IMG/VR virus record: IMGVR_UViG_3300035703_000557 | Direction: 5' to 3' (one strand) | DNA length: 16,901 nucleotides | Source: a virus | Shown: positions 6,407-16,901 of the stretch, in pieces | How the letters are laid out: every line of letters begins with the position of its first letter | Position numbering within the stretch: the stretch's first letter is position 1 | Notes under the pieces: generated by a model | Databases searched by the model: none | Told to the model about the DNA's origin: nothing | The model's input: the letters and a program-made list of their open reading frames with translations, nothing else | Translations under genes and position numbers: made by a program

Positions 6407-6801
6407 GCTTGCCCGAGGTCGTGGCTGCCGTCCGCGCCCGCGCTGCGGTCGCGACGTCAAAGGTCTACCCAGGCATGCGCGTCGCCGGCAAGACGACGCC
6501 GTGCATCGTCTACAACGTCGACCTGTCTGCGACCATGTTCCTGCCGGGGTCCATCGGAAGCAAGCACCATTGGAACGGCACGCTGACGGCGACCTGCATC
6601 GCTGACACGCTCGATGCGGCGACCGACCTTGCGTACGAGCTGGCCAAAGCGTTTGGCAGCGGGCCGTACACCCACACCGGCTGCAAGCTGGTCGCGCACG
6701 AAATGTCGTTCTCAACCGGGACCGAGCTGCCGGATGACGGCCAGCAGGACGCCGAGCGCACGGTCACCGTCACGATCAACCTCCAAGCACAGGAAACCTG
6801 A
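6403..6801 (+). CDS. Tail terminator / tail completion-like protein
   Basis: GTGA overlap with the upstream gene. 132 aa. VYPGMRVAGKTTPCIVYNV resembles DUF3168-type proteins. It sits between the gp10-like gene and the major tail protein. Confidence 0.4.
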   Translation: MSLPEVVAAVRARAAVATSKVYPGMRVAGKTTPCIVYNVDLSATMFLPGSIGSKHHWNGTLTATCIADTLDAATDLAYELAKAFGSGPYTHTGCKLVAHEMSFSTGTELPDDGQQDAERTVTVTINLQAQET

Positions 6802-6803
6802 CT

Positions 6804-7196
6804 ATGGGCTACATCATGGGATACGGCGGCACCGTTCAGCTGAATTTCAACAGCGGCGGTGCAACGACGTGGCCGGTACGGAACATTCAGATTCAGGTCG
6901 AGCGAGCGTCGCTGGACGTGACGCTGGTCTCGGATTGGACAGAAAAGCGGCGACCTGGCCGCGTCCGCCGGACGGTGAGCTTCGACCTGCTGGCGCAGGA
7001 TGCATCGATCGATGACCCAGTGCGCGAGCACATCTACCCGACGTCGCTTGCAAACGCGGTCAATCGTTCGGTCGTGGTCGCGTTCAGCGATCAAGCAGGA
7101 AAGGCGTACACGATCACTGGGCACATTACCTCTGCCAGCCGCACCGACGACGGTACTGGGGCAGCGGTGTGGTCCCTCAGCGTGGACGAGGCCTGA
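6804..7196 (+). CDS. Major tail protein candidate (130 aa)
   Basis: The call is positional: after the tail-terminator-like gene and before the chaperone-position ORFs and the tape-measure candidate. AGGAAA lies upstream. The sequence looks beta-rich. No diagnostic motif. Confidence 0.5.
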   Translation: MGYIMGYGGTVQLNFNSGGATTWPVRNIQIQVERASLDVTLVSDWTEKRRPGRVRRTVSFDLLAQDASIDDPVREHIYPTSLANAVNRSVVVAFSDQAGKAYTITGHITSASRTDDGTGAAVWSLSVDEA

Positions 7197-7498
7197 TGCC
7201 GCTGGACGTCTCCCAGTTCATGGCCAAGTCCCGCCGCGTGGTCGACCCCGACCTCGGCCCGCTGGTCGTGCGCGAGCCCACCATGGCGGACTACCGCCGG
7301 GCGGCGAACGACCCGTGGTGGTGGGCGGCCTGCCTGTCTTGCGAGGACGGCACGCCGCTGCTGGCCGATCCGGCCGACCTCGGCAGGCTGTCGGCCGACG
7401 TGTCGACCAGGCTGTGGGAGCAGGTGAACGCACCGCACCCTACTCAGCCGCCACCCGGCGGCTGTGGCGAATCGCAAGCCCGGAGCAGCGAGACATGA
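7196..7498 (+). CDS. Tail assembly chaperone candidate (G-like, 100 aa)
   Basis: TGATG 1-nt overlap with the preceding gene. Position immediately upstream of the tape-measure candidate. A second ORF follows in the -1 frame. Confidence 0.45.
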   Translation: MPLDVSQFMAKSRRVVDPDLGPLVVREPTMADYRRAANDPWWWAACLSCEDGTPLLADPADLGRLSADVSTRLWEQVNAPHPTQPPPGGCGESQARSSET

Positions 7499-7662
7499 TG
7501 CCCATCGCCCTGGCATCCTCTGAGATGACCACGCTGGAACGCTGCGAGTTCCTGCTCGGGGTAATCGCGTGCTCGCAGACCAACAAGCGCCCGCAGGAGC
7601 TGTTCCCGTGGGTGAAGGCCGGCCTCGCCGAGTTTGACCGGGAGGTGCTCCGTGGCGCGTGA
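7495..7662 (+). CDS. Second chaperone-position ORF (T-like, 55 aa), in the -1 frame relative to 7196-7498
   Basis: The ATG at 7495 overlaps the TGA at 7496-7498 (ATGA). The -1 frame is open through the whole upstream ORF, so a G-T fusion is also possible. Confidence 0.35.
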   Translation: MMPIALASSEMTTLERCEFLLGVIACSQTNKRPQELFPWVKAGLAEFDREVLRGA

Positions 7663-8215
7663 AATGAAGGCAGTCATCCGCGCCGAGATGGACCCGAGCG
7701 GCGTGGTCAAGGGCGTCGCCCGCGCCCAGGCGGAGCTGCGCAAGCTCAACGCCGCAGCGGCTGCGACCGCCGTCAACACGGGCGTCACGGCAGCCATCAC
7801 CGCCGCGCAGATCGCCGCCCGCATCGGAAGCCAGGTCATCAACGCCGCAGGCAACCGCGTGCAGAGCCTGACGCAGATCGCGACCTCCTACAACCTGCAG
7901 GCCGCCAACGCCGCCACGCAGGCGCAGATCGCCGACTTTGCCCGCAACAAGCAACTGGCGGCTGCCCTCGGACCGGACGTCGCCCGCGGCATCGCCGAGC
8001 AGACCCGGATCAAGGATGCCGACGCCATGCGGGTGATCCGTGATCCATTGATGGGGCCGGGATTGGCCAGCTCCATGGCAATCGGAGCCAACAGGGACGC
8101 GCTGGTGAACGAGGGACTTGACCAGGCCATCGGCACGGCGGGCCTGTCCGACAACGTCGCCGCCATCCGCAAGATGCTTGATGAGCTCCGGCAGAGCTTC
8201 AGGATGCCGTTCTGA
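7652..8215 (+). CDS. Tape measure protein candidate, unusually short (187 aa)
   Basis: GGGAGG at 7640-7645 sits 6 nt before GTG 7652. An alternative ATG is at 7664. The sequence is Ala/Gln-rich and looks helical. It follows the chaperone pair and precedes the minor tail genes. Confidence 0.5.
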   Translation: MAREMKAVIRAEMDPSGVVKGVARAQAELRKLNAAAAATAVNTGVTAAITAAQIAARIGSQVINAAGNRVQSLTQIATSYNLQAANAATQAQIADFARNKQLAAALGPDVARGIAEQTRIKDADAMRVIRDPLMGPGLASSMAIGANRDALVNEGLDQAIGTAGLSDNVAAIRKMLDELRQSFRMPF

Positions 8216-9135
8216 TGGGCTGGATACTCACTGGTCCCAAGGCCGAGACCTTCTCGCAGACCCGGGTCATGCCCGGGTCCGAGCACCAGTTCGAGCTGGT
8301 GTACGACGTCCAGTGGGTGCCGGACGGAACAAATCTGACGTTCCCGGCGGATGGGAACGACCAGCTGTTTGCCGTCGCGGGGCTGCCCAAGGTGCGCGAC
8401 CGCGTGCCGTCGGCGTTCCGGAACACTTCGCTGTACATGCGGGCGTACGTCTGCCGGCAGGTGCAGGCGTTCCCACGACCGGAAGGCCTGTACCAGTGGG
8501 AGGTCCGGTGCACCTTCGGCACCCTGCAGGTCACCGTTGCCGACGAGCAGGCCAAGTACGTCGCCGTCACCCGGCAGAGCGGGGTCCGCCAGGCGCAGGT
8601 GTGGCGGCTCGCGCCGACCTTCCCGGCCAACGGCAGCGTCACTTGGCCGACCGGAGTCGTCGACGTTGCGGGCACAAAGGTCGACCTCAATGGCAATCCG
8701 CCGGCCTACGAGGTGCCGCAGATGACCATCACGGTCGAAGTCCTGTGGGACCGGACGGCGGGCACTCCGGTCAATGCCGAGCCGCCCACGTCGACCTGGT
8801 CGACCTACGTCGGCAAGCGCAACGACGCGGCCTTCCTCGGCTGCGCCATCGGATCGCTGGTGTACCGGGGCTTCTCGGTGTCCCCACACCATGAGTGGTA
8901 CCGCATCCAGCACACGTTCCTGTGGGACGAGTGGTTCCACCTGGAGCAGGTGCCCGGGCCGATCCCGACCGGTGCACCCGCATGCACGACGGGCGTCACC
9001 GTGGCCGGCCTGGTCGTCCTGCAGGCCGACAAGGTCGTGTGGTTTCAGAAGTACCAGACGCTTGCCAACTTCAACAACATCGTCACCGCCCTCGAGCTGG
9101 CGGAGCTGACCGCACCAAAGCCCGCAGCAGTATGA
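8215..9135 (+). CDS. Minor tail protein (distal tail/baseplate position, 306 aa)
   Basis: TGATG overlap with the tape-measure candidate. Strong third-position GC. No motif recognised, so the call is positional only. Confidence 0.4.
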   Translation: MGWILTGPKAETFSQTRVMPGSEHQFELVYDVQWVPDGTNLTFPADGNDQLFAVAGLPKVRDRVPSAFRNTSLYMRAYVCRQVQAFPRPEGLYQWEVRCTFGTLQVTVADEQAKYVAVTRQSGVRQAQVWRLAPTFPANGSVTWPTGVVDVAGTKVDLNGNPPAYEVPQMTITVEVLWDRTAGTPVNAEPPTSTWSTYVGKRNDAAFLGCAIGSLVYRGFSVSPHHEWYRIQHTFLWDEWFHLEQVPGPIPTGAPACTTGVTVAGLVVLQADKVVWFQKYQTLANFNNIVTALELAELTAPKPAAV

Positions 9136-9659
9136 GCTGGCAGCGCCCCATTTTCGGACGCGGGATCCCTGGTGCCAACCGCGCCGTCGTGAACACGTGG
9201 ATGCGCGGCGCGTCGTCTGCCCTGGACAACGCCGACGTGATGCGGTGGGGCAGGGCGCAGATGGCCGCAGGGAACGTGGTGTCGCTTGGGCTGTGCAAGG
9301 TGAAATCCGCATTCCTCATCAGCCCCAACCGGTGGTCATACACCGTCGAGCACTGGTTCCCGCCGCCGCTGACCGGCTCGGGCATTACGCCGCCGTCCGA
9401 CCTCACGTTCAGCTACTCGAACGTGCAGAACCTGCGCGAATACCACAACACCGCGACGCGGGTGGACGGCATGGACATCACCAACCCGGCGGTCATCGTG
9501 GCCCCGGTCGGAAGCGTCTGGAACGGCACCGGCTTCGGACCCGTCGAGGGCGAGCTCAAGGCCAAGGTCAACGTCTACGTGGTCTACGCGACGGATGGTT
9601 CCGCGTGGCCGTACTTCGATCGCCCCAACCCGGTCGCTTGCGACACGGTGGAGTCATAG
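9132..9659 (+). CDS. Minor tail protein (175 aa)
   Basis: ATGA overlap at 9132-9135. The ORF track's longer version starting at 8895 lies inside the previous gene. Positional call only. Confidence 0.4.
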   Translation: MSWQRPIFGRGIPGANRAVVNTWMRGASSALDNADVMRWGRAQMAAGNVVSLGLCKVKSAFLISPNRWSYTVEHWFPPPLTGSGITPPSDLTFSYSNVQNLREYHNTATRVDGMDITNPAVIVAPVGSVWNGTGFGPVEGELKAKVNVYVVYATDGSAWPYFDRPNPVACDTVES

Positions 9660-10011: not shown

Positions 10012-11618
10012 TTCGGTCGTTTCTTAGGAAAGGTGCAGTTTCCAAGGAAGCCGACTGCCTCGCCACCGCCGAGCCCAACCAGCCGGGCGGCCTGACCGCC
10101 ACGGCCGTAAGCACGACCACGATCTCGTTGTCTTGGACGGCCGACAGCACGGCCGCGCCTAACGAGGCGACCTCCTACGCGGTTGAGAGGTCCATCGACG
10201 GCCTCGGGTCGTGGAGCACCATCGCGACGAACCTCACATCGCCCTCGTACTCGGATGCGTCGCTGTCTGCATCGCAGACGCGGTACTACCGCGTGTCGGC
10301 GTACAACTGCTTCGGCGGTAGCCTCGCCAGCGCGACGGCGAACGCGACCACTCAGGCAGGCGGCCTATCCCCGTCTTGGTCGTTGGACTTCAGCAGCGGC
10401 ACCCCAAGCGGCTACACGCTTACCCGCGCCAGCAGCGGCACCTACCTGGACTCCTCGGGCTACGTCGCTTCGGCGGCCTCGGACATCGCCCGACTGACCC
10501 ACGACAGCAGCGGCACGAGGCTCGGGCTTCTTGTGGAGGAAAGCAGGACGAACGAGGTGACGCAAAGCGCGGACCTCTCCACCACGTGGATCCGCGACGG
10601 AATCCAGGCGTTCGGATCCGGAAGTACCGCAAACGCTGCAACGGCGCCCGACAACACGACGACCGCAGACCTCGTTACGGAAACAACTGTTTCGGGCCGC
10701 CACGGCGTGTATTCAAACGCCAATGGTTTCAATCTTCCATTTAACACGCAGTACACGATTTCCATCTATGCAAAGAAGCCAGCGACAAATGGCCGCGATC
10801 ACGTGTCGGTCGGTGTCAGCTTCGGTTCTGGAAATGGAATCGTCGTATTCGATGTCGTAAACGGCACCTACACGGGCAACAATGGATGGGGCGGCGGCAC
10901 CTTGCACGGCTACGGCATTTCTGCGGCCGGGAACGGGTGGTACCGGTGCACCGTTACCTTCAGTTTCTCTGGCACCGGCAACGCAACTACGGGATCGGTG
11001 CGGGTGGGCCCGGCGATCTCTACCGCAACCAACTCGTTTGGCCTCCCTGCTTACCAAGGGAACGGCACATCTGGCATCCTGTTGTGGGGTGCTCAGATGG
11101 AAACGGGGTCCAGCGCGACGGCGTACATCCCGACGACGACGGCAACAGTTACCCGTAGCGCAGACCTCGCCCACGTCCTGGACTCGTCCATCACCTCCTG
11201 GGGCGACCCCGGTGCCGTGGTCGTCCAGTTCTACCCGCCTGGCAAGGCCGGGACGCTCTTGTCCACCGACGATGCGGCTACCGCGCAGGTGGGCATCGAA
11301 GCCAGCAGCACGACTGCGGCGCGGGCGTTCTGGTCATCGGGCAACACCGCTACGGGAACCATCGGCACCGGAGTGCAGAAGGCCGTCCACTACTGGAACG
11401 GCAGCACGTCGAAGTTCTGCATCAACGGCGGCACGGTGCAGAGCGGCACGAACAACCTGACCATCGCGAACACCGACTTTGTCACGCTCGGCGCCGAGGC
11501 CACAGAAAGCAGCGGGGTGCCGGGGACGTTCTCGCAGTACGCAAACTGCGTGATCCGTAAGGTCGAGTTCTACAGCGGCACCCTGACCGACGCGAACCTC
11601 CAGACGATCACCACATGA
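10008..11618 (+). CDS. Tail fiber / receptor-binding protein: FN3 domain plus ConA-like (LamG/CBM-type) jelly-roll domains
   Basis: GTGA overlap start. Residues about 24-115 are FN3-like (GGLTATAVSTTTISLSWTA...SYAVERS...YYRVSAYN). They are followed by LLVEESRTNEV..S.DL...W, NGWYRCTVTF and LLWGAQMETGSSATAYIPTTTATVTRSADL, which is typical of phage carbohydrate-binding fiber modules. GC is lower around 10700-10900. Confidence 0.6.
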   Translation: MIRSFLRKGAVSKEADCLATAEPNQPGGLTATAVSTTTISLSWTADSTAAPNEATSYAVERSIDGLGSWSTIATNLTSPSYSDASLSASQTRYYRVSAYNCFGGSLASATANATTQAGGLSPSWSLDFSSGTPSGYTLTRASSGTYLDSSGYVASAASDIARLTHDSSGTRLGLLVEESRTNEVTQSADLSTTWIRDGIQAFGSGSTANAATAPDNTTTADLVTETTVSGRHGVYSNANGFNLPFNTQYTISIYAKKPATNGRDHVSVGVSFGSGNGIVVFDVVNGTYTGNNGWGGGTLHGYGISAAGNGWYRCTVTFSFSGTGNATTGSVRVGPAISTATNSFGLPAYQGNGTSGILLWGAQMETGSSATAYIPTTTATVTRSADLAHVLDSSITSWGDPGAVVVQFYPPGKAGTLLSTDDAATAQVGIEASSTTAARAFWSSGNTATGTIGTGVQKAVHYWNGSTSKFCINGGTVQSGTNNLTIANTDFVTLGAEATESSGVPGTFSQYANCVIRKVEFYSGTLTDANLQTITT

Positions 11619-11902
11619 TGCACGACTACCGCCTCCGCTTCCCGACCCGCGCCATGGCCGAGGCGACCCTTGCCGTGGCCGGCATCCCCAACGGTTTTAG
11701 CACCGACTACTCGGTCGATCACATCGGGCCGATCACCATCGAGCCGGCCGTGATGGACGGCGACGAGGAGCTGGTCCCGGCCGTGATCGACGCCGGGCAC
11801 CACGTGAACCTCCGCAGCCGGCAGGAGCTGACCGAGGACCAGCTGGAGCCGCTGGTCGAGGCCATGGTCTTCCCCGTCAACCCGAAGCGCGTCTGGTCAT
11901 GA
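11615..11902 (+). CDS. Hypothetical protein (95 aa)
   Basis: ATGA overlaps at both ends and high GC3. It sits downstream of the fiber gene, so a fiber-assembly role is possible but unsupported. Confidence 0.5.
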   Translation: MMHDYRLRFPTRAMAEATLAVAGIPNGFSTDYSVDHIGPITIEPAVMDGDEELVPAVIDAGHHVNLRSRQELTEDQLEPLVEAMVFPVNPKRVWS

Positions 11903-12192
11903 AGGCCGCCGTCGCCATCCTCGCGCTGTCCAGCTGCTCGGCCACCGCGACCATCGCGGAGGAGACGAACGCCGTGCGGCTCCGTGCCACCAGCGCACAG
12001 AAGCACATGGCCGTCGTGCAGGCCGACCTTGAGGCCATCCAAGTGGCGGCCGCCGAGGTCCACGCCGCTCTCCCAGGCGCCGAGGACCGCGACTCCCAGC
12101 TGCTCACGACAATCCAGTACGTCTTCATCGGCGGTGGCGTCATGGCCGTTTGCGCGACCGTGTATTGGCTCATCAACAAGGCAAAGAAATGA
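11899..12192 (+). CDS. Putative lipoprotein with a C-terminal transmembrane anchor (97 aa; u-spanin-like topology)
   Basis: N-terminal MKAAVAILALSSC gives a signal-like hydrophobic stretch plus an L-S-S-C lipobox. The C-terminal LLTTIQYVFIGGGVMAVCATVYWLI is followed by NKAKK. The middle is a helical, soluble 60 aa or so. Confidence 0.5.
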   Translation: MKAAVAILALSSCSATATIAEETNAVRLRATSAQKHMAVVQADLEAIQVAAAEVHAALPGAEDRDSQLLTTIQYVFIGGGVMAVCATVYWLINKAKK

Positions 12193-12329
12193 CCACCGAC
12201 CAGGCATCCATCCTGCTGTTCATCACGCTTGCCGTCGCGTTCCTCTCAGGCTGCACCGTGGGTGCGACCTGGAAGGGCGCCCGCACCTCCAACAAGAAGA
12301 AGGTTCGCCATGCCGCTGCTCGCTGACGC
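12189..12329 (+). CDS. Small membrane/lipobox protein (46 aa)
   Basis: Below the ORF-track cutoff. ATGA overlap at 12189-12192. Translation: MTTDQASILLFITLAVAFLSGCTVGATWKGARTSNKKKVRHAAAR. It has one hydrophobic helix ending in an L-S-G-C lipobox and a basic tail. GC3 is about 82%. Confidence 0.45.
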
Positions 12330-12420
12330 CTCGTCATTCCTCGGCTCCCTCTGGTTCGCGCTGCTGCTCGGCTGCATCGGCGTCGGCTTTGGGTTCTGGT
12401 ACTGCCGGAAGTCGAAGTGA
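12310..12420 (+). CDS. Small single-TM peptide (36 aa), holin- or toxin-like
   Basis: The ATG at 12310 has GAAGG about 7 nt upstream. Translation: MPLLADASSFLGSLWFALLLGCIGVGFGFWYCRKSK. GC3 is about 92%. It overlaps the previous ORF by 20 nt. Confidence 0.45.
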   Translation: MPLLADASSFLGSLWFALLLGCIGVGFGFWYCRKSK

Positions 12421-13307
12421 TCAGGCGGTGCTGCTGCGGCGGTGGATCGCAACAGGAGGGGAACTCCGAGTGCGTTCCGCTGTGCACTGGCACCAACGTC
12501 TACAACTTCACCATCGCGCTGTCGCACGAAGGGTGGTCTCGCGGGACTCCGGGAACGGAGAGTGACTTTGAGCAGCCGGCGAGCTGTGCGCCTGGTTGCT
12601 GCGGCGGCCGGTACAAAGAGGTCCGCAAGCGAGAGAACGTCGTCGGAAAGTACACGGGACGTGCGCATGCTGATGGATTGTTTCCGAGCAGCGATCTGTG
12701 TGAATGCTGCAAGATCGATTCAGTGGACATCGTTACGCCAGCCGGCAGCTGGTCCGCAGACTTTGTCTACACGTACGCCACCAACACCATGGTGCGCAAC
12801 AACTACGTGGAGGACTTCAACTACACGAACAGTCTTACGGCGAAAATGTGGACGTGCGTGCTGCACCCGTCAAACGATTATTTCGACTGCCAGTGCGCTG
12901 GTCCGGCAGGGTTGTTTGACGTTCTCGAGATCAATGCTGGCGGCATCAATCTCGTCGACTTTGACTACAACGCGGGCGCTGGAAACTGCGGGTTAGACGG
13001 AACCAGCACGTATTTCTCCAATCACAACGTGAGGCTGTTCTACGTGAAGCCAGTGCCGTTCGCGACCTGTCGGACGCTTGCCGGGACGTACCGCCTCGCT
13101 TGCGCCCGGTACATCGTGCCATATACGCCGTGGGTGTATTGGGGTGCTTTCGGTGCCACTGAGTTGCTGTGCAGCTACCGAAAGTTCGTGAACACGGGCG
13201 GTAGCTGCTGGATCGAGGAGCTGGGCGACTGCTTCGCCAACGACCCGATCTACTCTTGCGGCCCTGACGCCGGTTTTAACGTCCCAAAGACGGTGGTGGT
13301 CACGTGA
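12417..13307 (+). CDS. Cysteine-rich protein of unknown function (296 aa, 21 Cys)
   Basis: GTGA overlap with the 36-aa peptide gene. The N-terminus is MIRRCCCGGGS, with further clusters CAPGCCGG, LCECC and DCQC. Codon third positions favour G/C, so it looks coding, but overall GC is only about 52% (31/60 by hand for 12781-12840). No family recognised. Confidence 0.6.
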   Translation: MIRRCCCGGGSQQEGNSECVPLCTGTNVYNFTIALSHEGWSRGTPGTESDFEQPASCAPGCCGGRYKEVRKRENVVGKYTGRAHADGLFPSSDLCECCKIDSVDIVTPAGSWSADFVYTYATNTMVRNNYVEDFNYTNSLTAKMWTCVLHPSNDYFDCQCAGPAGLFDVLEINAGGINLVDFDYNAGAGNCGLDGTSTYFSNHNVRLFYVKPVPFATCRTLAGTYRLACARYIVPYTPWVYWGAFGATELLCSYRKFVNTGGSCWIEELGDCFANDPIYSCGPDAGFNVPKTVVVT

Positions 13308-13618
13308 GGTACGTGGGCATCCAGGACAACCCGCACCTTCCGGAGGACGTCCGCCGTGACTTGGCCAGGCTCAGGGAGGCCCAAGGCCAGCCAGGCCTGG
13401 GCGACCTCGTCCAGGCGGCTACGACGGCTGCCGGCGTACAGCCGTGCGGGCGGTGCAAGCGCACCCGGGACGCCATGAACCGTCTGACGCCGTCCTGGGT
13501 GCGGCGTGCGCTATCGGCGCTTGGTCTTCGGCCGGCGGGTCGCAAGCCGGATCACCACGTACAGCACGATGGCGAACGGCAGGATCGGCAGGCACCAACT
13601 GACGGCCACCAGCCCTAG
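13304..13618 (+). CDS. Small CxxC protein (104 aa as an open frame; conserved-looking core ends near 13495)
   Basis: GTGA overlap start. GLGDLVQAATTAAGVQPCGRCKRTRDAMNRL has a CxxC motif and high GC3. After about 13500 the frame becomes low-complexity and is antisense to a better-looking minus-strand ORF. Confidence 0.45.
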   Translation: MRYVGIQDNPHLPEDVRRDLARLREAQGQPGLGDLVQAATTAAGVQPCGRCKRTRDAMNRLTPSWVRRALSALGLRPAGRKPDHHVQHDGERQDRQAPTDGHQP

Positions 13619-14076: not shown

Positions 14077-14286
14077 ATGTCCCGCAGGAAAGATGAGCGC
14101 CCACAGGTGGTGCAGGACACCCGCGTGCAGGTCGGCCTCGACCGCACGACGAACGACCTGCTGACCGCCCTGGCCAAGTTCGACGGGTCCAGCAAGGTCC
14201 ACGTCATCCGCCAGCTCGTCCGGGCGGCGGCCCGCACCCATTACGGCAGCCTCGAGAACGCGCTGCTGGAGGTGCGCAGTGCTTGA
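14077..14286 (+). CDS. Ribbon-helix-helix (CopG/Arc-like) DNA-binding protein
   Basis: GGAGGA sits 8 nt upstream of the ATG. TRVQVGLD (beta strand) followed by RTTNDLLTALAKFDGSSKVHVIRQLVRAAA (two helices) fits the RHH layout. 69 aa. Confidence 0.6.
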   Translation: MSRRKDERPQVVQDTRVQVGLDRTTNDLLTALAKFDGSSKVHVIRQLVRAAARTHYGSLENALLEVRSA

Positions 14287-14401
14287 CCTCGTCATCATCT
14301 TCGCGACAGTGCTCGGCACCCTGGCGTGGGCCGTGCTCTGCCGCCCCGAACATGAAGCCTGCCGCCCCGTCGACAAGGTCGAGGAGGTGAGCCGTGGCTA
14401 A
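14279..14401 (+). CDS. Small membrane peptide (40 aa)
   Basis: GTG at 14279 overlaps the RHH gene end by 8 nt. Translation: VLDLVIIFATVLGTLAWAVLCRPEHEACRPVDKVEEVSRG. GC3 is about 85%. Below the ORF-track cutoff. Confidence 0.35.
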   Translation: MLDLVIIFATVLGTLAWAVLCRPEHEACRPVDKVEEVSRG

Positions 14402-16540: not shown

Positions 16541-16901
16541 GTGGGGCCGCCAAGTACAGAGAACGTCGACAGCGGGGAAGCACCTACTTCACCCGGTGAA
16601 CCACCTGCTGCAGCGGCCGTCGACGTCTCGGATGCGTACGCCCGTGGGGTCATCGATGGCACCGTCGCCGCGCCGCGCCGGATCCGGGCCGCGTGCCGGC
16701 GGTACCTCGCCGAGCGGGCGGACCCCGCCGGCCACGGCGTTGCCTGGGACGCCTCCGAGCTCGAGCGGTTCCTGCAGCGGTGCCGGATGCTCAAGTTCGA
16801 GCTCCTGCCTTGGCAGGTGCACGCGGCGACGGTGCTGATGGCCCGCCGGCGGGCGGACGACGGCACCCCGGCTACGCGCTACGCCCTGTGGGTGGTCGCC
16901 C
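16541..16901 (+). CDS. terL: Terminase large subunit, N-terminal part; runs off the window end and continues at base 128
   Basis: The frame is continuous with 1-1491 through the 127-bp overlap. DAYARGVIDGTVAAPRRIRAACRRYLAER...WDASELERFLQRC is typical of TerL N-termini. GTG 16541 is the first plausible start and its SD is weak, so the start is uncertain. Total length would be about 574 aa. Confidence 0.75.
   Translation, partial: MGPPSTENVDSGEAPTSPGEPPAAAAVDVSDAYARGVIDGTVAAPRRIRAACRRYLAERADPAGHGVAWDASELERFLQRCRMLKFELLPWQVHAATVLMARRRADDGTPATRYALWVVA
16775..16901. repeat. Exact 127-bp duplicate of bases 1-127 (circular-contig end overlap)
   Basis: A base-by-base comparison of the two ends matches over all 127 nt. 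The reading frame is preserved across the join. Confidence 0.9.

Follow-up and report, generated by a model that had tools for sequence, protein, structure and literature searches.

A late cassette with a predicted unimolecular spanin-like lipoprotein and two single-helix peptides in small tailed phages that have no recognisable endolysin

Unimolecular spanins (u-spanins) combine a lipoprotein signal with a membrane helix at the C-terminus in one polypeptide and have no periplasmic cysteine (in all 58 known), and their periplasmic domains cover 60–149 amino acids (aa), the lower end being held by SIO1 (60 aa) and P12053L (61 aa) (PMC6139136, Kongari et al. 2018). A lytic protein is detectable in 97.4% of cultured double-stranded DNA phages, while sets with only a holin or only a spanin account for 1.5–2% (PMC12596118), and single-gene lysis peptides are known to target MraY and MurJ (bioRxiv 10.1101/2023.10.16.562596). 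Here we describe three small open reading frames (ORFs), called ORF1, ORF2 and ORF3, in the IMG/VR virus record IMGVR_UViG_3300035703_000557, a stretch of 16,901 nucleotides (nt) that is referred to in its entirety as the window. For the cassette that they form we would give about an even chance to the reading that it is a late envelope-disruption (lysis) module, consisting of a minimal, helical u-spanin-like protein and two holin-like peptides, with a wall-degrading partner that is not among the recognised genes.

The coding evidence for the three genes is considered first. The TGA of the preceding gene lies on the ATG of ORF1, giving an ATGA overlap; the same four letters join ORF1 to ORF2, while ORF2 and ORF3 share 17 nt and ORF3 is linked to the next gene by GTGA. 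In the called frames, the G+C content at third codon positions (GC3) is 0.87 for ORF1, 0.80 for ORF2 and 0.89 for ORF3, and the change from one best frame to the next coincides exactly with the ORF borders. Pairwise comparison of ORF1 with its relatives yields ratios of non-synonymous to synonymous substitution rates (dN/dS) of 0.1–0.33. For ORF2, 6 synonymous and no non-synonymous changes were found, and for ORF3 there are 3–6 synonymous and 0–1 non-synonymous changes relative to most relatives. The frame-specific GC3, the frame switching at the borders and the purifying selection mean that all three are real, constrained genes.

The trio recurs in 36 related IMG/VR loci, where the order is constant and the overlaps are 4 nt followed by 17 or 11 nt. 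Three sequence types, A, B and C, can be distinguished, and within each of them ORF1, ORF2 and ORF3 vary together, while the tail fibre upstream and the cysteine-rich gene downstream assort independently of the type. The trio behaves thus as one module. It is placed 3' of the tail genes and 5' of the regulatory and replication genes, and start-to-stop overlaps connect it to the late genes. A promoter-like site in front of the cassette was looked for, and none was found. The initial annotation, made from the window alone, had described three translationally coupled mini membrane-protein genes; overlaps, GC3, dN/dS and the 36 loci confirm the genes, at 11899–12420, and their coupling, and their position after the tail genes is likewise confirmed.

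ORF1 begins with MKAAVAILALSSC, which contains the lipobox LSSC; the short lipoprotein signal reads MKAAVAILALSS and is followed directly by Cys13. Behind this residue the chain forms a predicted long helix. A conserved motif next to the membrane leads on to the C-terminal membrane helix, which is rich in Gly and Ala, and the protein closes with the basic tail NKAKK. The putative lipidation cysteine is invariant in 21 out of 21 diverse aligned homologues, and the lipoboxes of the family (LSSC, LAGC, LGGC, LSGC, LTGC and LTSC) follow the pattern L[SAGT][SG]C throughout. The residue at position +2 is S, V, T, A or N and never Asp, in agreement with sorting to the outer membrane; this rule is derived from Escherichia coli, and that of the host may differ. 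In the family the signal comprises 12–15 residues, of which the hydrophobic part before the cysteine makes up 8–10; since this is too short for a membrane helix, we read the signal as cleaved.

At the other end of the protein, the Kyte-Doolittle profile (19-residue window) has its maximum of 1.84 at residues 74–92. A C-terminal hydrophobic segment is present in every full-length member of the family, and the helix and the basic tail (e.g. NKAKK, QRLKK or HQRTK) are retained down to 30% identity. The only other cysteine of ORF1, Cys85, is located inside the membrane helix, such that residues 14–71, and with them the predicted periplasmic part, are free of cysteine. AlphaFold2, run with the family alignment, predicts a helix at residues 2–57, a break at 58–64 (LPGAEDR) and a second helix at 65–96, into which the Gly/Ala-rich hydrophobic segment falls, with a predicted local distance difference test (pLDDT) score of 72.6. 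The periplasmic part is predicted to be ca 58 aa long, which is at the edge of, or just below, the range of the known u-spanins. The predicted topology of ORF1 is that of a unimolecular spanin, and it is conserved across the whole family. The u-spanin-type topology seen in the initial annotation, with its ILALSSC signal and its transmembrane anchor ending in NKAKK, is thereby upheld.

ORF2 has one hydrophobic helix that contains the sequence FLSGC, and a tail with 8 K/R. The cysteine is invariant in five sequence types, in the context xGC[ST], and in every variant the N-terminus is acidic and without K/R, hydrophobic residues continue past the cysteine, and the tail carries a charge of +6 to +8. 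Owing to the acidic N-terminus, the strongly basic tail (positive-inside rule) and the continuation of the helix beyond the cysteine, ORF2 is best read as an anchor of N-out/C-in orientation that stays uncleaved and has its cysteine within the membrane, rather than as a lipoprotein precursor. By these features ORF2 does not qualify as a bacterial lipoprotein, and the Pfam family LPAM_1 matches only at E = 0.46. Its best family match is also below threshold, namely TIGR01592 holin_SPP1 with E = 0.014 and 15.6 bits, the cut-off being 47.3.

ORF3 has likewise one helix, with CRKSK at the C-terminal end, and the consensus over 11 variants can be written as MLA..(helix)..GFW[YW]CRK..K. The LLGC that it contains is not conserved, as it is lost in types B and C. 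Both peptides resemble holins in that they are small and late, have a membrane helix and carry charges at the C-terminus. Compared to what had been annotated, the 36-aa single-helix peptide ending in CRKSK is as described, and the second peptide has to be corrected from 46 to 45 aa. The annotation had furthermore assigned lipoboxes to two of the three products. This stands for ORF1, with its invariant cysteine, but not for ORF2, where only a lipobox-like xGC is found between an acidic N-terminus and a basic tail.

A search with ORF1 gave 16 IMG/VR loci, and a profile gave 56 clusters among 5.8 billion proteins, all of 94–99 aa. Apart from one of 33.7 kb, the contigs that carry them do not exceed ca 20 kb. 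Judged by its sequence, ORF1 founds a new family of ca 56 clusters that has no similarity to any isolated phage. A profile search of 1.84 billion representatives extended this to further members of 97–104 aa and to distant ones of 121–169 aa, and all of these wider members share the lipobox, the motif after the cysteine, a membrane helix and, beside it, the juxtamembrane motif VSDD/P.W. In a profile-profile comparison with hhalign, the remote homologues reach a probability of 99% and E = 7e-18. A "putative lipoprotein" of Spirochaetota in the ESM Atlas (0.82) was considered as a relative and discarded as below the usable level; otherwise only the virus clusters of the family itself were retrieved there.

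One distant type of ORF1 is encoded in T7-like podovirus contigs, where its gene is flanked by those for the scaffold and the major capsid protein; the contigs in question end before the terminase and lysis region. Their portal shares 42–47% identity with its counterparts in Pseudomonas, Rhizobium, Roseobacter, Bordetella, Ralstonia and Limnohabitans phages. There is hence indirect support, from sequence comparison, for the ORF1 family being used by presumably virulent phages of diderm bacteria and being expressed late, and with such an expression a lysis role would fit better than lysogenic conversion.

The scheme that we infer for the lipidation of ORF1, the topology of the three products and their functions is the following; it takes up the initial annotation's reading of a lysis or membrane-targeting cassette on the side of lysis. 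ORF1 would be exported by means of its short signal peptide and receive a lipid at Cys13, while its C-terminal helix would cross the cytoplasmic membrane and leave the basic tail on the inner side. With an anchor at either end and ca 58 helical residues in the periplasm between them, it would have the architecture of a unimolecular spanin and, like a spanin, would join and fuse the inner and outer membranes at the final step of lysis. ORF2 and ORF3 would be single-pass N-out/C-in peptides with basic cytoplasmic tails, and would most likely make a timed lesion in the cytoplasmic membrane, as a holin together with a partner or an antiholin.

A number of observations weigh against the lysis module. 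No spanin or holin family resembles ORF1 in sequence (BLASTP gave no alignment with T1 gp11), and with respect to the 13 described u-spanin families no significant match was found in PHROGs, and none by tblastn against 50,697 phage records. For ORF2 and ORF3, neither an adjacent endolysin nor homology to a holin family was found, PHROGs returning no lysis family. The comparison with spanin and holin families to which the initial annotation had looked gave nothing above noise for any of the three products, and at permissive thresholds Pfam, PHROGs, NCBIfam and the PDB sequences yielded only noise-level matches. The periplasmic part of ORF1, predicted to be all-helical, would measure no more than ca 10 nm, a short reach for spanning the periplasm. 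The spanin-like gene is the first in the cassette, whereas in T1 it is the last. In Pseudomonas phage LUZ100, the slot that the ORF1 homologue takes in the podovirus contigs holds small hypothetical genes, and the podovirus position is an accessory slot and not a recognised lysis cassette. The only named host lead is one phage-only contig in a metagenome-assembled genome (MAG) of Hyphomicrobiaceae. Finally, there is no endolysin beside the cassette or anywhere in the clade, and the usual context by which holins and spanins are defined is thus absent.

This last point deserves closer attention. Among the proteins of the window, no muramidase, amidase, transglycosylase or peptidase was recognised in searches of Pfam, PHROGs, NCBIfam and the PDB sequences, in agreement with what had been noticed at the outset. 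The extra genes of the relatives encode more cysteine-rich proteins, nucleases of the HNH and PDDEXK kinds, an integrase and a protein of winged-helix/DnaD-like type, and among them no peptidoglycan hydrolase was found either. As the gap extends from the window to more than 100 related contigs of 16–18 kb, it is clade-wide and not an accident of assembly. A clade of this kind either hides a new type of wall-degrading protein or consists of tailed phages that lyse without one.

The absence of the endolysin would cease to be puzzling, as far as the cassette is concerned, if the three genes formed a superinfection-exclusion or envelope-remodelling module that blocks related phages or alters a surface or periplasmic component. 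Models for superinfection exclusion are the lipoproteins T5 Llp and phi80/N15 Cor, and also the inner-membrane Sie proteins. We regard this alternative as rather unlikely. It agrees with the small lipoprotein and membrane genes having genes of the tail-fibre type and a hypervariable gene as neighbours, with the temperate nature of many relatives (integrase, and an attP-like 3' end of tRNA-Ala), and with the podovirus homologue occupying a slot for small accessory genes. However, neither the tail fibre nor the cysteine-rich protein changes its type in step with types A, B and C, unlike what would be expected of a receptor-specific blocker, and the coupling to late structural genes without a promoter-like site in front suggests late rather than prophage expression. 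The cassette is, furthermore, retained where there is no integrase, including the window, and in the T7-like contigs. This alternative would also leave the late operon without a holin candidate, since the only membrane-helix products encoded on the + strand are ORF1–3 and a 40-aa peptide of the early region (14279–14401).

Another option is that lysis proceeds without a muralytic enzyme of the phage, with ORF2 and/or ORF3 blocking an enzyme of the lipid II pathway or triggering autolysins, and ORF1 handling the outer membrane. The lack of a recognisable peptidoglycan hydrolase in the related contigs, the very small genome, and the size and shape of ORF2 and ORF3, which are those of known single-gene lysis peptides, all speak for it. 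We nevertheless find it unlikely, because such peptides are known only from single-stranded RNA and single-stranded DNA phages, no sequence similarity to any known lysis peptide was found, and a spanin is normally required only once wall degradation is complete. It may also be that a hydrolase, divergent or novel, goes unrecognised, the cysteine-rich protein having given no usable model. The more far-reaching version, in which the entire, widespread clade of 16–18 kb tailed phages lyses without a peptidoglycan hydrolase, one or both of the mini-peptides (45 and 36 aa) being membrane-embedded "protein antibiotics" or autolysin triggers and ORF1 breaching or fusing the outer membrane, appears quite unlikely to us. 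If it were true, the "protein antibiotic" principle would extend beyond the single-stranded DNA and RNA phages, and there would be a lead towards new peptide inhibitors of envelope synthesis.

For the lysis module as preferred here, the cysteine-rich protein encoded directly after ORF3 is a candidate for the missing wall-degrading partner, or else for a receptor-binding protein. Its gene slot is filled in the relatives by at least seven mutually unalignable versions of 287–485 aa with 15–31 cysteines, the sole common feature of which is an N-terminal R-x-x-C-C-C, and each of them has been free to recombine with respect to the cassette types A, B and C. The extreme variability speaks for a possible role in host recognition rather than in catalysis. 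For the version in the window, only 7 close homologues were found among 5.8 billion proteins, no match was obtained in Pfam, PHROG, NCBIfam or PDB, nor in the ESM Atlas, and the AlphaFold2 model is unusable (pLDDT 39.6).

The bridging function proposed for ORF1 presupposes an outer membrane, and we infer, on indirect evidence, a diderm host, at which the initial annotation had hinted. The pointers to this are the family members in T7-like contigs akin to phages of Proteobacteria, and a contig binned with a Hyphomicrobiaceae MAG. The latter is the single match in the genome collection, a related phage-only contig (L019; JBMOGA010000090.1, 11,214 bp) in which the protease and capsid genes are separate, while they are fused in the window; Hyphomicrobiaceae is the sole taxonomic name attached to the group. 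The MAG itself does not contain ORF1, and 400 genomes of its order gave no relative. A 34-nt attP pattern found no match in metagenomes, while a 25-nt version matched more than 120 soil contigs with tRNA-Ala(CGC) and is too general to name a host. A haloarchaeal host, which would explain the missing endolysin, was rejected, as the proteome is not acidic (D+E 10.4%, K+R 10.8%).

If the host were instead a monoderm, e.g. a high-GC actinobacterium, both ends of ORF1 would lie in one membrane and the cassette would have a holin-type or other function, with no role as a spanin. The 66% GC with many GTG and TTG starts is compatible with such a host, as are the many actinophage relatives of the primase-helicase, the similarity to Pontimonas phage phiPsal1 (48% identity in the prohead protease, 25% in the portal), and the precomputed Pfam tag PF10814 that some ORF1-family members carry. 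This is, however, distinctly improbable, considering that a lipid anchor and a membrane anchor in one protein have no known role in a monoderm envelope, that the best primase matches are Acidithiobacillus and Ralstonia phages and the tail fibre matches Rhodobacter phages, and that the T7-like contigs and the Hyphomicrobiaceae MAG point to diderms. Finally, the 16–18 kb genomes could be satellite-like and released when a co-resident helper phage lyses the cell, the cassette serving some other purpose, but despite the very small genome, the P4/PICI-type (PICI, phage-inducible chromosomal island) D5_N-DUF5906 primase-helicase and the integrase of relatives, this is very improbable, given that a full set of head, neck, tail, tape-measure, baseplate and fibre proteins is encoded, of which known satellites lack at least the tail, and that nothing in the window points to a helper.

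The setting of the cassette can be summarised as follows. Positions 1–127 of the window are identical to 16775–16901, and a single open frame runs from 16199 across the junction to 1491, into the large terminase gene. Because of these identical ends and the reading of the terminase gene through the junction, the window is taken to be a circular assembly of ca 16,774 bp. The GC content is 66% and every gene is on the + strand. The large terminase is followed by the portal (Pfam Phage_portal) and by a protein in which the prohead protease and the major capsid protein are fused (Peptidase_S78 + Phage_capsid). Next are head completion and neck proteins, candidates for the tail tube (130 aa) and the tape measure (193 aa), three proteins of the tail tip, two of them encoded at 8215–9135 and 9132–9659, and a 573-aa fibre (fn3; phrog_5939 tail protein). 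Then come the block with ORF1–3, small regulatory genes and the D5_N/DUF5906 primase-helicase.

Megablast of the whole window against the 50,697 isolated phage records gave no match, and at the protein level the matches, which were obtained for the capsid, terminase, portal, fibre and primase, stay under 50% identity throughout and come from a mixture of taxa. Ralstonia phage YO164_3 was dropped as a relative, the primase being the sole shared gene. With a conserved tail protein, 80 further loci of the same 16–18 kb phage group were retrieved. Many relatives have a tyrosine integrase and other genes in place of the primase-helicase module of the window.

This integrase module is located at 6585–7427 in locus L017 and is also present in L005, L008, L009, L010, L012, L093, L096, L106 and L109. 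In the relatives it is adjoined by an attP-like site, e.g. at 7499–7539 (−) of L017, 25 nt of which agree in every letter with tRNA-Ala genes, over their T arm and acceptor end. Together with an upstream GGGGGCG, these 25 nt make up a minihelix-like element that is picked up by the family model of transfer-messenger RNA (tmRNA). Identification as tmRNA (E = 1.6e-7) was rejected, and the element is the 3' end of a tRNA-Ala-like gene. The 40-aa mini membrane peptide of the early region (+ strand, GC3 0.83) overlaps the end of a regulator gene (14077–14286) and the start of the gene that follows, and a 50-aa peptide resembling it is encoded at 7832–7984 of locus L002.

The gene on the 5' side of the cassette occurs in two unrelated forms, an acidic one of 95–102 aa, to which the gene at 11615–11902 of the window belongs, and one of 112–123 aa (5666–6004 in L003) that carries a GIGYTY..LDAF motif. 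Both are found with ORF1 of type A and of type B, and are thus interchangeable. The 95-aa protein has no Pfam or PDB match above noise. On the 3' side of the cysteine-rich gene, a 104-aa protein is kept in all relatives. Its motif is PGLGDxV..A.G..PCGxC, which in the family alignment extends to an invariant core of PGLGDxV..A.G..PCGxC...LN..TP, and a weak match to phrog_32048 is the family evidence for it. The coordinates are collected below.

Table 1. Features of the cassette and its surroundings, with counterparts in related loci.
Feature	Sequence	Position	Strand	Basis or remark
ORF1, 97 aa	window	11899..12192	+	predicted u-spanin-like topology; sequence, conservation, AlphaFold2, dN/dS
ORF1 predicted signal peptide and lipobox L-S-S-C	window	11899..11937	+	Cys13 codon 11935-11937
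ORF1 predicted C-terminal transmembrane segment, ca residues 72-93	window	12112..12177	+	Kyte-Doolittle, AlphaFold2 helix, family conservation
ORF2, 45 aa	window	12189..12326	+	one predicted membrane helix, invariant Cys (FLSGC), strongly basic tail
ORF3, 36 aa	window	12310..12420	+	one predicted membrane helix, conserved C-terminus GFWYCRKSK
95-aa acidic protein	window	11615..11902	+	directly precedes the cassette; phrog_18574 (no known function) matched weakly
296-aa Cys-rich protein, 21 Cys	window	12417..13307	+	GTGA overlap with ORF3; R-x-x-C-C-C
104-aa protein	window	13304..13618	+	GTGA overlap with the Cys-rich gene; last gene of the co-oriented block
Cys-rich version	L003	6519-7388		R-x-x-C-C-C
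Cys-rich version	L004	6507-7448		R-x-x-C-C-C
Cys-rich version	L005	2696-4054		R-x-x-C-C-C
Cys-rich version	L008	6507-7694		R-x-x-C-C-C
Cys-rich version	L012	6510-7373		R-x-x-C-C-C
Cys-rich version	L014	1560-3017		R-x-x-C-C-C
Distant ORF1 homologue, 158-161 aa	L239	6001-6483		extra cytoplasmic domain; between scaffold and capsid genes
Distant ORF1 homologue, 158-161 aa	L244	6004-6480		extra cytoplasmic domain; between scaffold and capsid genes
Distant ORF1 homologue, 158-161 aa	L236	3280-3762		extra cytoplasmic domain; between scaffold and capsid genes

Should ORF1 indeed be a spanin, it would be the shortest u-spanin and the first that is essentially all-helical. It would found a new family, encountered so far only in uncultivated phages (siphoviruses and T7-like podoviruses), and it would offer a compact natural model of membrane fusion by one small protein.

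The closest described counterpart is T1 gp11 (133 aa), which shares with ORF1 a lipobox signal (LSGC in T1), the absence of Asp at +2, a cysteine-free periplasmic middle part, a C-terminal helix and a short basic tail, and in both cases a block of late genes ends with the coding region (PMC6139136). The two have no sequence similarity, and the periplasmic part is 85 residues in T1 compared to ca 58 here, predicted to be mainly beta in the former and one long helix in the latter. T1 gp11 is also the last gene of its cassette, whereas ORF1 is the first and lacks an adjacent holin-endolysin pair. In terms of length, the periplasmic part of ORF1 is close to the lower limit of the range, as the periplasmic domains of the u-spanins of SIO1 and P12053L, the shortest in the survey, have 60–61 aa. 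These are predicted to be largely unstructured or extended (3% helix), in contrast to the helical domain of ORF1, and the tblastn search matched no record of the phage collection.

A helical periplasmic domain brings the lambda pair Rz/Rz1 to mind, which consists of an outer-membrane lipoprotein and an inner-membrane-anchored protein with a helical domain of the coiled-coil type; ORF1 looks like both in one chain. It differs in being a single polypeptide, in having no periplasmic cysteine for disulfides and in being much shorter, and its sole PHROG similarity to Rz-like spanins is at noise level (E = 0.037) and confined to the signal peptide. Braun's lipoprotein Lpp is comparable as a small lipoprotein with an alanine-rich, helical mature part of ca 56–58 residues and a C-terminal Lys. 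However, Lpp has no C-terminal membrane helix, and the ORF1 family is found on phage-sized contigs only. The JGI name "Lpp" that some family members bear is not supported by Pfam, where no LPP match was obtained at E up to 5 for ORF1, P0001, P0054 or P0055.

ORF2 and ORF3, in turn, can be compared with the small single-helix holins, such as T1 gp13 (71 aa), which likewise combine a single membrane helix with a charged C-terminus and come from late, overlapping genes. With 45 and 36 aa the two peptides are shorter than these, and they lack both homology to holin families and an adjacent endolysin. The other comparison is with phiX174 E and phage M Lys. There is no sequence similarity to these, and such peptides are known only outside the tailed phages, but ORF2 and ORF3 have in common with them one membrane helix together with a basic part, encoded in a small genome without an endolysin.

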